A stretch of 64,000 nt of DNA from Escherichia coli (GCF_003334315.1 NZ_QOWR01000018.1), one strand, 5' to 3'. Shown: positions 20,352-64,000, counted from the first letter of the stretch. The notes: generated by a model from the sequence alone, not told the origin. Made by a program: numbers and translations.

Positions 20352-20463
20352 TATGACAATAGAAAAACACGAAAGAAGCACTAAGGATTTGGTGAAAGCA
20401 GCAGTATCGGGATGGCTGGGCACTGCGCTTGAATTTATGGATTTCAAGAGTCATGCGTGTTAA
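20352..20463 (+). pseudogene. 5' remnant of a ProP/ShiA-type MFS transporter gene truncated at the prophage junction (ydfJ-like)
   Basis: ATG at 20352 gives MTIEKHERSTKDLVKA; an overlapping frame reads AVSGWLGTALEFMDF (the conserved MFS N-terminal E-[WF]-x-DF motif) then stops after 6 codons, right next to the integrase 3' end. Confidence 0.45.
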
Positions 20464-20482
20464 CTATTTGATAAATATTAAA

Positions 20483-21778
20483 TTAATTTTTCATTGCTTC
20501 GTTATGGGGCATGGTTGGGGCAAACTCGCTTAACTGTGTATTTAACAAAGCTACCTGTGCATTATTGTTTTCAGACATCCATTTTCCGTATACCTGAAAT
20601 ACCATTTGCGCATCTGCATGGCCCATCTGGTTTGCTATAAATGCCGGGTTAGCACCAGCTGTCAGCGACCAGCAGGCATAAGTATGTCTCGACTGATATG
20701 ATTTTCGATGGCGGAGTCCGGCACGTTTTATCGCTGCGTCCCACATCTGCCTTATTGAGTCAACGGTAAAATGGTCACCATAATTTTTTACTCTCGCTGA
20801 CACTTCAGGTTGAAAAACAAAGGTGCATTTTTGTTTTTCTGTTCTGCCATACTCTCTGAGGTGAACATCAATGATATGCTCTTTGCTCAGTCTCGTTAAT
20901 GTCATCTGGCTCCGGAGAGCGTCGATTGCTGGCTTAATAAGATGAATGACCCGATTGGTTCCCGCCTGTGTTTTTGGTACCGTGAAACGGTCTTTTGCTA
21001 AATTTCTCCTGATCATCATTGTTCCATTTTTCAGATCTATGTCCTCCCATCCAAGTGCACACAGCTCACCAGGGCGAACGCCAGTATAAACAGAAACACA
21101 CCATAAATTTTTTGCTTGCTGATTTCTGCACGCATCGATAAGACGGATAAATTCCTCCCGCGAAAGAGGATCCGGAATGGTTCTTGATTCCTTTAATGGC
21201 GAGATCCCCTTAAGCGGATTATCTGGCAGGTAACCGTTATCAACACCAAACTGGAACACGGCGTTAAGATTTGTCATGTAATTATTTACAGTTACAGCCG
21301 ATCGCCCTGGTTGTGTAACAATATAGTTACTTTTGGGGATCTGGTATCCAGTCAGTAGCTCTTTACGAACCTCCAGTAATTTTTCTTTATTAATCGATGA
21401 GGCAAGATTTTTTTCACCGATTATGCTCAGGATATTTTTGATGACGGCACGGTATGTGTTGAGTGATGTTTTGGCGACTTCAGTTTCTTTCAGTGCCAGA
21501 AATTTTTCAGCCAGTTCTTTTATGGTTAAATCTTGTCGGGCCTCACCAAATTTTTCCAGATTGCGTGAGGAGGGAAACTGTTTTGCATAGTCGAAAACAC
21601 CAGTTTTTATTGCGTAACAAACAGAGGAGCGTAGTTCACCTGCAACGCGCCTGTTTTTTGCTGTGTCAGGAACCCCCAGATTTTCCCTGACTCTTACGCC
21701 TTTATAAACAAACCAGATACGTAATTTCCCTCCATGGTTTTCCACGCCTGTCGGATATTTCATTTCAACTTCTCTCAT
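20483..21778 (-). CDS. Phage tyrosine integrase (431 aa)
   Basis: C-terminal catalytic region with R...HxxR...Y pattern; located at the prophage edge and transcribed toward the junction. Confidence 0.85.
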   Translation of the reverse strand: MREVEMKYPTGVENHGGKLRIWFVYKGVRVRENLGVPDTAKNRRVAGELRSSVCYAIKTGVFDYAKQFPSSRNLEKFGEARQDLTIKELAEKFLALKETEVAKTSLNTYRAVIKNILSIIGEKNLASSINKEKLLEVRKELLTGYQIPKSNYIVTQPGRSAVTVNNYMTNLNAVFQFGVDNGYLPDNPLKGISPLKESRTIPDPLSREEFIRLIDACRNQQAKNLWCVSVYTGVRPGELCALGWEDIDLKNGTMMIRRNLAKDRFTVPKTQAGTNRVIHLIKPAIDALRSQMTLTRLSKEHIIDVHLREYGRTEKQKCTFVFQPEVSARVKNYGDHFTVDSIRQMWDAAIKRAGLRHRKSYQSRHTYACWSLTAGANPAFIANQMGHADAQMVFQVYGKWMSENNNAQVALLNTQLSEFAPTMPHNEAMKN

Positions 21779-21797
21779 TAGTTAGTGTGGCTTTTAG

Positions 21798-22049
21798 TCA
21801 AGTAAGATGACGTCTTGGTCTCGCTGATGCCTGGCGCTCAATCCAGCGATCAATTTCTTCCAGGTTGTAAAAGCATGGACTGTTATCCCATGGCATACCG
21901 TCATGAGCGACATGCTTATATTCCCTTCCTTCCATAAACGATTTTTCCCGGGCCTTTTTTAACGTACCTTTTTTTATTCCTTTCAGCGCAATTAACTGCT
22001 CTTCGGATACCCATTTGCCGGGAGAGACAATCATGATTACTTCGCTCAT
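21798..22049 (-). CDS. Putative excisionase / small DNA-binding protein
   Basis: Small basic ORF immediately upstream of int in the same orientation; function by position. Confidence 0.5.
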   Translation of the reverse strand: MSEVIMIVSPGKWVSEEQLIALKGIKKGTLKKAREKSFMEGREYKHVAHDGMPWDNSPCFYNLEEIDRWIERQASARPRRHLT

Positions 22050-62900: not shown

Positions 62901-63145
62901 CGGGAAGTGGATCACCTGATTATTCTAAATACAGTGTTAACACTTCTTCTGCAGGCGCTCATACGCACTCTGTATCGGGTACTGCTGCAAGCGCAGGTGC
63001 ACACGCACATACTGTAGGTATTGGTGCGCATACGCACTCGGTTGCGATTGGTTCACATGGACACACCATCACCGTTAACGCTGCTGGTAACGCGGAAAAC
63101 ACCGTCAAAAACATCGCATTTAACTATATTGTGAGGCTTGCATAA
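59918..63145 (+). CDS. Side tail fiber protein (Stf-like) with Ala/Ser-rich repeats and C-terminal His-x-His repeats
   Basis: [27 protein letters not shown]-terminus; long low-complexity middle; C-terminal GAHTHS repeats. Confidence 0.85.
60400..61260 (+). repeat. Degenerate tandem repeats inside the tail fiber gene
   Basis: Recurrent DNA unit ...AAAACGTCAGAAACGAACGC... at about 60531, 60651, 60741 and 60991. Confidence 0.6.
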
Positions 63146-63726
63146 TGGCATTCAGAATGAGTGAACAAGCACGGACCATAAAAATTTATAATCTGCTGTC
63201 CGGAACTAATGAATTTATTGGTGAAGGTGATGCATATATTCCGCCTCATACAGGTCTGCCAGCAAACAGTACCGACATTGCACCGCCAGATATTCCAGCT
63301 GGCTTCGTGGCTGTTTTCAACAGTGATGAGTTATCGTGGCATCTCGTTGAAGATCATCGGGGTAAAACGGTTTATGACGTGGCTTCCGGCGACGCGTTAT
63401 TTATTTCTGAACTCGGCTCATTACCGGAAAATGTCACCTGGTTATCCCCGGAAGGGGAGTTTCAGAAGTGGAACGGCACAGCCTGGGTGAAAGATGCAGA
63501 AGCAGAAAAACTATTCCGGATCCGGGAGGCGGAAGAAACAAAAAACAGCCTGATGCAGGCAGCGAATGAGCATATTGCGCCACTTCAGGATGCTGTAGAT
63601 CTGGAAATCGCAACGGAGGAAGAAAACTCGTTGCTGGAAGCCTGGAAAAAGTATCGGGTGTTGCTGAACCGTGTTAATACAACAACTGCACCGGATATTG
63701 AATGGCCAGTAGCACCTATAAGGTAA
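63145..63726 (+). CDS. Tail fiber assembly protein (Tfa)
   Basis: ATG overlaps the stf stop; 193 aa; position. Confidence 0.85.
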
Positions 63727-63796
63727 ATTCGTAATGATTACCTAAATACGTTATTCTTTTGTTCAAAAAGTGATTTTGCTATAGGTAGGGAGTATG

Positions 63797-64000
63797 GGTG
63801 ATGCTGCCAACTTACTGATTTAGTGTATGATGGTGTTTTTGAGGTGCTCCAGTGGCTTCTGTTTCTATCAGCTGTCCCTCCTGTTCAGCTACTGACGGGG
63901 TGGTGCGTAACGGCAAAAGCACCGCCGGACATCAGCGCTATCTCTGCTCTCACTGCCGTAAAACATGGCAACTGCAGTTCACTTACACCGCTTCTCAACC
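63797..64000 (+). mobile_element. insA: IS1 insertion sequence, left end and start of insA (continues beyond the window)
   Basis: Terminal repeat GGTGATGCTGCCAACTTACTGAT; insA begins GTG at 63852, translating [49 protein letters not shown]. Confidence 0.85.

Follow-up and report, generated by a model that had tools for sequence, protein, structure and literature searches.

A nearly intact lambdoid prophage of the HannyBb/mEp460_ev081 type at the Qin site of an Escherichia coli chromosome

We analyzed a 64-kb stretch of an Escherichia coli chromosome (GCF_003334315.1, NZ_QOWR01000018.1; hereafter the window), which runs in the reverse orientation relative to K-12, and found that positions 20430-64000 hold ~97% of a ~45-kb lambdoid prophage. 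The reading that best accounts for the data, to which we assign a probability of roughly 0.8, is that a temperate lambdoid phage genome of ~45 kb, of the type represented by the isolated phages HannyBb and mEp460_ev081, sits in the 5′ end of ydfJ as a mosaic relative of the cryptic K-12 prophage Qin. In favor of this reading, the attP of both phages maps to the Qin junction, and in a list of 55 genes none but ydfU has an internal stop. As judged from the sequence, the element probably retains the capacity for phage production or lost it only very recently; the defects that are visible or possible are a nonsense codon in ydfU, an insertion sequence (IS1) 70 nucleotides (nt) past the tail fiber assembly gene tfa, and the unseen right arm with attR.

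Integration site, gene content and virion genes

Toward the prophage, the chromosomal genes run ynfE/F, speG, ynfA, rspA and rspB (ending at 20295), after which phage genes begin. A 5′ fragment of ydfJ (20353-20463, plus strand) is read through into the prophage, and its translation is identical to K-12 YnfP. The element adjoins rspB and occupies the 5′ end of ydfJ, with a junction identical to that of K-12 Qin, for which integration at this place has been published (PMC6379469). The attL core, TGAATTTATGGATTTC, lies at 20430-20445, where the sequence starts to match the attP regions of mEp460_ev081 and HannyBb; the core TGAATT(T)ATGGATTTC is also found at the right junction (attR) of a near-identical prophage in IBS28 and at both ends of K-12 Qin. 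An earlier note on this DNA had placed a prophage next to rspB at the Qin site, with its left boundary at 20440; the locus is borne out, and the boundary, which falls inside the att core, is correct to ~10 nt. When the left flank of the window and the core were joined to the right flank of IBS28 in a 400-nt empty-site query, natural genomes that have an intact ydfJ proved to contain the reconstructed attB in one piece, at 100% identity. This junction is covered to at least 80% in one place in 2009 of 5426 complete genomes, and at least 80% of window positions 19000-43000 is carried by 102 of the 5426. The element belongs to the Qin locus by its site (5′ end of ydfJ, next to rspB, same core) as well as by its IntQ-type integrase and its dicBF operon (ydfA, DicF, dicB and ydfD).

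The gene list was obtained by transferring the RefSeq annotation of the IBS28 copy to the window (55 genes, 20483-63726); the two prophages differ at 16 places across ~43 kb. With the exception of ydfU, the listed genes have no internal stop and have their start and stop codons in place, ymcF being the sole start-codon exception (its mapped start reads ATT), and genes shared with isolated phages match them across their full length. The integrase (426 amino acids [aa]; 20483-21763, minus strand; PHROG 1) and the excisionase (83 aa; 21798-22049, minus strand) are both full length and are 99% and 100% identical, respectively, to those of HannyBb and mEp460_ev081; the match of K-12 intQ to the integrase is confined to residues 31-426, at 97% identity. 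Each of the life-cycle modules that the earlier note had listed, from integration to tail fibers, is present, while its statement that all are intact by length of open reading frame (ORF) fails for ydfU (31832-32881, plus strand; DUF968 with an HNH-like domain), which is broken by an in-frame TAA at 32372-32374. The codon at 32372 is TAA in the window and GAA in IBS28; IBS28 and S171-1, another near-identical copy, are annotated with the same intact YdfU protein accession, and the nonsense codon is private to the window copy. In the Pfam assignment, DUF968 spans residues 160-346 and HNHc_6 residues 271-328. With its stop at codon 181, the N-terminal ORF reaches 21 residues into DUF968 and ends ahead of the HNH-like motif, so that most of DUF968, the motif included, is cut off from it. 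The prophage therefore is not free of nonsense codons, frameshifts and insertion sequences as an intact one would be: it has the ydfU stop and IS1, and two small ORFs of the nin region are flagged as pseudogenes by RefSeq in the near-identical copies (IBS28, S171-1). A tandem or composite prophage was also considered and rejected, in view of the single copy of each module and the length of ~45 kb.

Ahead of the virion genes lies a cosN site, GGGCGGGAGCGT (40625-40636, plus strand), with which the cdtI phage record opens; its flanks align to lambda cos, with the cut at the same position. The packaging and head genes that follow (40821-47823, plus strand) are 99-100% identical to those of HannyBb and are assigned to PHROGs 141, 15, 118, 21, 133, 122 and 153. 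They encode a small terminase (DUF1441), a large terminase (699 aa), a W-like adaptor, a portal, a capsid fusion, a decoration protein (DUF2190) and an FII-like head-closure protein. The capsid gene, for which the RefSeq name is likewise protease/capsid fusion, specifies a 675-aa fused ClpP-protease/major-capsid protein that PHROG 133 covers over its entire length and that shares 99% identity with its counterparts in mEp460 and HannyBb. The combination of a fused protease-scaffold-capsid protein with a DUF1441 small terminase is that of Gifsy-2/cdtI/mEp460-type heads; the literature assigns the protease-capsid fusion type to Gifsy-2-like heads, the link to Gifsy-2 being drawn here from this literature and an annotation note to mEp460. 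The lambda-type set of Nu1, A, W, B, C, Nu3, D and E is not what is found: the large terminase and portal are 24% and 23% identical to those of lambda, and nothing in lambda matches the small terminase, the W-like adaptor, the fused capsid protein or the DUF2190 and FII-like proteins. The tail genes (47835-63726, plus strand), in contrast, are of the lambda type; all are full length, and they run in the order Z, U, V, G, T (in the -1 frame relative to G), H, M, L, K, I, J, lom, side tail fiber (1075 aa) and tfa. From Z to J, the order is that of lambda, with identities to lambda of 25-92%, and most of these genes match isolated phages at 80-100%. The lambda-type virion module described in the earlier note is thus accurate for the tail from Z to J and not for packaging and head, where matches to lambda reach at most 24% or are absent. 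A canonical GGGAAAG slippery site was not found at the G-T junction; because this junction is nucleotide-identical in four isolated, live phages, we do not count its absence as a defect.

The phages closest to the element (HannyBb, mEp460_ev081, cdtI, mEp460, Tritos and phi458) are isolates rather than predictions, and the case for phage production rests on the 93-100% identity of most shared genes to such isolates. HannyBb (PP925841) shares at this level the integrase, excisionase, exonuclease, repressor, cro, YdaT, O-like, DUF977, hok, rem and ydfU genes, most lysis genes, the cold-shock block, both terminases, the portal, the fused capsid and most tail genes, and its attP maps to the same core. 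It differs in having a YdfT-type Q (753 nt), other genes between Q and the holin, a different side-fiber region, a DNA invertase and an intact ydfU homologue. mEp460_ev081 (LR597641) agrees with the window prophage in integrase, attP and type of head and tail, and its repressor, cro and YdaT are identical; its side fiber, tfa and lom are 91-97% identical to those of the window and its proteins mostly 87-100%. Unlike the window prophage, it carries rusA, a different Q and, between tfa and attP, pin and ydfK-like genes, its small terminase is only 42% identical, and it has no blc/ybgA/AraC-like cassette. This phage, from infant feces, is described in the literature as a functional temperate phage that carries Qin-like dicB, dicF, dicAC and rem genes (PMC10448788). 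The portal, fused ClpP-protease/capsid, decoration protein and tail genes of cdtI and mEp460 are 97-100% identical to those of the window, and cdtI in addition has the DUF1441 small terminase and an identical cosN start; the early regions of the two are entirely different (an S24-type repressor in mEp460, a UmuD-like cI in cdtI), as are their integrases and cargo, cdtI carrying cdt and cif. With lambda, the element has in common the lambdoid gene order, the position of the cos cut and the G/T frameshift layout, and among the tail proteins L (92%), J (90%), K (86%) and I (78%) are closest, with Z, U, V and M at 50-56%. It differs from lambda in its integrase and att site and in lacking lambda-type Nu1, C, Nu3, D and E; in tblastn searches of the window, lambda N, cI, exo/bet/gam and P had no match.

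Left operon, immunity region and Rem

The left operon contains a RecE-like exonuclease gene (823 aa; 22122-24593, minus strand) that matches PHROG 2082 over residues 1-822 and is 99% identical to that of HannyBb; K-12 matches only residues 1-256, and K-12 ydfE is its N-terminal remnant. There is no adjacent RecT-like annealing gene, an arrangement that fits the class of nuclease without annealing protein seen in phage Tritos. Chi sites, which are abundant in the Chi-rich Tritos class, are not notably enriched in the prophage (five on the plus and three on the minus strand). Next come ydfD (24687-24878, minus strand; 98% identical to K-12), dicB (24875-25063, minus strand; 100% identical to K-12) and the small RNA (sRNA) DicF (25238-25289, minus strand; Rfam DicF, 72.5 bits). 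The dicB, dicF, hok and rem genes named in the earlier note are all confirmed by Rfam matches and protein identity to K-12, as are sok and ydfD. Two early-left hypothetical ORFs (25566-25766, plus strand; 25735-26100, minus strand) and a ydfA-like DUF1391 gene (26112-26264, minus strand) follow, all taken from the IBS28 annotation and 99-100% identical to mEp460_ev081. In a search for defense systems that covered ten uncharacterized or cargo proteins, including the products of these two ORFs and leaving out the DUF1391 gene, PADLOC returned no hits.

In the immunity region (26343-27169), a repressor gene (26457-26864, minus strand) faces a Cro/DicC-like gene (26942-27169, plus strand), with promoter-like hexamers adjacent. 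The 135-aa repressor matches the NCBIfam DicA subfamily over 135 of 135 residues (239 bits), and its gene is flanked by three copies of the putative operator motif TGAGAAAACTCAA, at 26343, 26380 and 26916. These are the only copies in the 64 kb; the K-12 dicA region is devoid of the motif and has different repeats. The repressor is 57% identical to K-12 DicA, so that the earlier note's label of dicA stands at the level of the family and not for the K-12 gene with its operators; the DicA/DicC immunity type of Qin, operators included, is not the one found here. Given this divergence of the repressor and operators unrelated to those of K-12, the element should be heteroimmune to Qin.

A rem gene (31234-31485, plus strand) encodes a protein 96% identical to K-12 Rem. 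Rem has been shown experimentally to be an antirepressor of DicA, relieving DicA repression 165-fold in K-12, where the DicA-controlled system is also induced by heat and urea, independently of RecA and of Rem (PMC10448788). The repressor that Rem would antagonize here is only 57% identical to DicA, which makes one ask what part of that protein is recognized by a Rem conserved at 96%. The course of events that we propose starts with the insertion of the phage into the 5′ end of ydfJ by its tyrosine integrase. Lysogeny would then be kept by a short repressor without a RecA-cleavable domain, and the switch would flip spontaneously, through the bistable repressor/Cro circuit, or when the Rem antirepressor is made, classical SOS cleavage not being the trigger. 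The left operon would next express DicF, DicB, YdfD, the exonuclease, Xis and Int, after which Q would turn on the late genes and the DNA would be cut at cos and packaged. It is a tentative suggestion that the element is a still-active natural phage whose lysis-lysogeny switch relies on a DicA-family repressor and Rem, with no SOS input. If it is true, the phage and its strain would offer a complete inducible system in which to seek the signal that triggers Rem, and they could show why Rem has stayed 96% conserved while the repressor diverged to 57%.

Right end, relation to Qin and competing explanations

The alignment to the IBS28 prophage ends at 63796, and IS1 begins at 63797, 70 nt past the tfa stop. 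The left end of IS1, comprising its inverted repeat and the start of insA, occupies 63797-64000 (plus strand) and is identical to the annotated IS1A of S171-1 at 204 of 204 positions, and IS1 transposase features underlie the matches to 63797-64000. The window ends inside IS1, 274 nt after tfa, together with the draft contig QOWR01000018.1 (GCA_003334315.1), and this edge reflects a repeat at which the assembly was interrupted, as were two other assemblies, at the same tfa-IS1 junction. Because window and contig both end inside IS1, ~1.7 kb of the right arm and attR are not visible, and completeness, which the earlier note had taken as apparent, is not judgeable from the window. The exact tfa-IS1 junction had no single-piece match in complete E. 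coli genomes, and a small right-arm ORF, used to look for the adjoining contig of this assembly, matched nothing but short, unrelated contigs. In IBS28, the whole prophage measures 45,038 bp, and attR lies 1.74 kb past tfa. In the sister prophages, this stretch is AT-rich and mostly non-coding, with no long ORF (IBS28, tfaQ to ydfJ), and only its final ~280 nt match the attP arm of phages; HannyBb and mEp460_ev081 have a DNA invertase and a ydfK-like gene in its place. The S171-1 copy carries IS5 between Q and blc and IS1 elsewhere in its right arm (positions 13590-14570 and 46041-46738 of the S171-1 locus).

Several explanations other than a mosaic relative of Qin that still makes phage were weighed. 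It could be supposed that the window prophage is the undecayed form of K-12 Qin, with Qin derivable from it by deletions alone. The two share the ydfJ att site and ~10 kb in blocks of 82-99.6% identity (intQ, dicF-dicB-ydfD-ydfE, ydfA, dicC'/ydfX, hokD-rem-ydfU, essQ, rrrQ-rzpQ-cspI-ynfN-gnsB and stfQ/tfaQ, the last as the C-terminal parts of the side-fiber gene stf and of tfa). Within these, intQ with its flank reaches 99.6%, the dicF-dicB-ydfD-ydfE block 98.3%, and hokD-rem-ydfU, the essQ-rrrQ-rzpQ lysis genes with the cold-shock block, and stfQ/tfaQ 83-95%; moreover, what K-12 has lost in connection with IS2 corresponds cleanly to window positions 21643-23826. However, nohA of K-12, which shares 98% identity with lambda Nu1, is unmatched in the window, so that the ancestor of Qin had a lambda-type packaging gene; Q is QuuD-like here and YdfT in Qin; the repressor and operators differ as described above; and gene contents differ in both directions, with IS2, relBE, ydfV, flxA, cspB and cspF found only in Qin and blc, ybgA and the AraC-like gene only in the window prophage. 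In Qin itself (20.5 kb, cryptic), xis, the replication genes and every gene for the head and the tail shaft are missing, together with most of the exonuclease. Judged by these alignments, derivation by deletions alone is already refuted as stated and we give it hardly any credence; the two prophages are, on the same comparison, mosaic cousins, with the integration arm, the dicBF operon and portions of the nin, lysis and cold-shock regions in common. The earlier note's complete counterpart of Qin, proposed as a reference for its decay, accordingly holds as a full-length occupant of the Qin site with ~10 kb in common and not as the undecayed form. A second alternative is a lambda-like, SOS-inducible prophage, with a CI-type repressor that is cleaved after DNA damage so that mitomycin C induces it. 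It would fit the overall lambdoid gene order and the repressor/cro pair with its operators, but the DicA model covers the 135-aa repressor end to end, and among the family hits of the repressor there is no S24/LexA-type domain. A strict LexA box (CTGT-N8-ACAG) is absent from the prophage, the one copy in the window (15537) lying outside it at chance level, and the relaxed 20-mer LexA consensus, with three mismatches allowed, has no match in the window. A SOS-cleavable CI/LexA-type repressor is thus not what is found, the LexA-box searches lend no support to SOS control, and this alternative appears improbable. From the repressor sequence, we infer that it is not RecA-cleavable. Because the repressor is a 135-aa DicA-type protein with no S24 hit and the prophage has no LexA box, induction by mitomycin C seems doubtful, and the check with this agent put forward in the earlier note suits such a repressor poorly. 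By analogy with K-12, control via the Rem antirepressor is more likely than SOS control, and induction would be expected through Rem or spontaneous switching, not SOS.

It is also possible, although we consider it rather unlikely, that this is a recently grounded prophage, complete gene by gene, that no longer excises or makes phage, either because a rearrangement associated with IS1 has deleted or relocated the right arm with attR or because the nuclease domain of YdfU is needed. The presence of the tfa-IS1 junction in two other assemblies implies that IS1, from 70 nt after tfa, is inherited rather than transient, the ydfU nonsense codon cuts most of DUF968, with the HNH motif, off from the N-terminal ORF, and there are other IS insertions in the sister prophages. 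On the other side, the insertion point lies within the non-coding 1.7 kb between tfa and attR, and a simple 768-bp insertion would bring the prophage to ~45.8 kb, inside the 44.5-47.0 kb range of related phages; YdfU is by position a nin-region accessory nuclease and probably not essential, by analogy with the nin genes of lambda, which are dispensable; and the remaining genes hardly differ from their counterparts in live phages. Of the gene damage that the earlier note had named as capable of overturning its reading, part is present, as the ydfU stop and IS1, and neither lesion is shown to hit an essential function. We continue to prefer a HannyBb/mEp460_ev081-type phage genome that is probably still productive, against which the following should be set: IS1 starts at 63797, with attR and the P arm beyond the window and the contig; ydfU is broken; matches to HannyBb are weaker at Z (80%), DUF1327 (57%) and J (89%) and weak or missing at stf, tfa and lom, there being no HannyBb match to lom; the segment from Q through the cargo genes is absent from both HannyBb and mEp460_ev081 and is backed only by other phages (92-94%); the IS5 and IS1 copies in the sister prophages are independent insertions, the mark of a lineage that is being eroded; and control by Rem would be an extrapolation, Rem having been tested on DicA, which is 57% identical to the repressor here.

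In kind, the element is a known one: an ordinary, nearly intact temperate-phage genome that provides a well-preserved further example. It is not new in kind: full-length prophages at this site and a functional phage with dicBF and rem have been published and near-identical copies exist in annotated complete genomes; Qin-locus prophages of 11-97 kb have been reported in 48% of 638 strains (PMC6379469), and ydfJ recurs as a term in at least part of the literature on prophage integration sites of Shiga-toxin-producing strains. Its value is modest, as a well-preserved reference for mapping some of the losses in Qin. The losses that can be read from it are the IS2-linked deletion of the 5′ end of int, of xis and of the 3′ part of the exonuclease gene, and the truncation of hok/mok, with loss of the upstream sok/mok region where K-12 has relBE; the ancestor of Qin had a different head, Q and immunity module. 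In practice, it would serve as a natural system in which to study induction of the DicA/Rem type.

Replication, nin, cargo and lysis genes

Downstream of the immunity region, a YdaT/CII-like gene (27153-27674), an O-like initiator gene (27655-28620) and a DUF977/Ren-like gene (28661-29083), all on the plus strand, are assigned through PHROGs 163, 391 and 142, respectively, and are 93-100% identical to HannyBb; a Pfam search with the O-like protein gave nothing significant, its assignment coming from PHROGs. The O-like gene contains an iteron origin, in which five iterons (family D1; 27983-28114) with a spacing of ~23 nt are followed by an AT-rich repeat. The nin-like small ORFs (29080-30304, plus strand) are 98.3% identical to phages vB_EcoS-640R1 and vB_EcoS-813R8. 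The hok/sok locus (30693-31017, plus strand) comprises a sok model at 30693-30867 (Rfam sok, 99.9 bits) and a mok-like ORF of 70 codons (30805-31017, plus strand) that contains hokD (30862-31017); HokD is 100% identical to K-12. The upstream sok/mok region is kept here, and K-12 homology begins only at 30848, by the position of relBE in K-12, a start that fits the published idea that relBE truncated an ancestral hok/sok locus.

The Q antiterminator gene (32899-33276, plus strand; PHROG 79) is QuuD-like, 86% identical to QuuD of DLP12 and without a match in K-12 Qin, which does not agree with its earlier description as quuQ-like; a terminator scan places a hairpin, a candidate tR′, at 33375-33398 (plus strand). 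The interval between Q and the holin is where toxin genes lie in other lambdoid phages. Here, it holds a cargo cassette (33432-36228; GC content 38% overall) of a blc lipocalin gene (33432-33956, minus strand; NCBIfam Blc, 312.6 bits against a cutoff of 267), a YbgA-family gene (34149-35108, plus strand) and a gene for an AraC-family YdeO/GadX-like regulator (35515-36228, plus strand; GC 33%), the latter two assigned by matches below cutoff. The segment from Q to the AraC-like gene is found at 92-94% identity in the isolated phages IdasGreatGrand, Lambda_ev087 and 1H12.

The lysis region contains genes for a holin (36419-36634, plus strand; 92% identical to HannyBb), a DUF1327 protein (36639-36857, plus strand), a lysozyme (37306-37839, plus strand; 95% to HannyBb) and Rz (37836-38333, plus strand; 99% to HannyBb), with the lipoprotein ORF Rz1/rzoQ embedded at 38014-38283 (plus strand) and a hypothetical ORF at 36882-37178 (minus strand). 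It is followed by the Qin-type accessory genes cspI, ymcF/ynfQ, ynfN and gnsB (38539-40258, plus strand), which are 92-100% identical to K-12 Qin; the cspI leader is a 5′ thermoregulator of the cspA type (Rfam cspA, 109.8 bits), and a small ORF in this interval is 79% identical to lambda p79. At 39197, a 1-base deletion relative to IBS28 falls in the 5′ part of the annotated ynfN, and a shorter ynfN ORF (39219-39410), 100% identical to phage copies, remains. At the far end of the prophage, the Rfam candidate sRNA family IS009 matches 63488-63686 (212 bits), wholly inside the 3′ end of tfa, and may simply model the tfa coding region.

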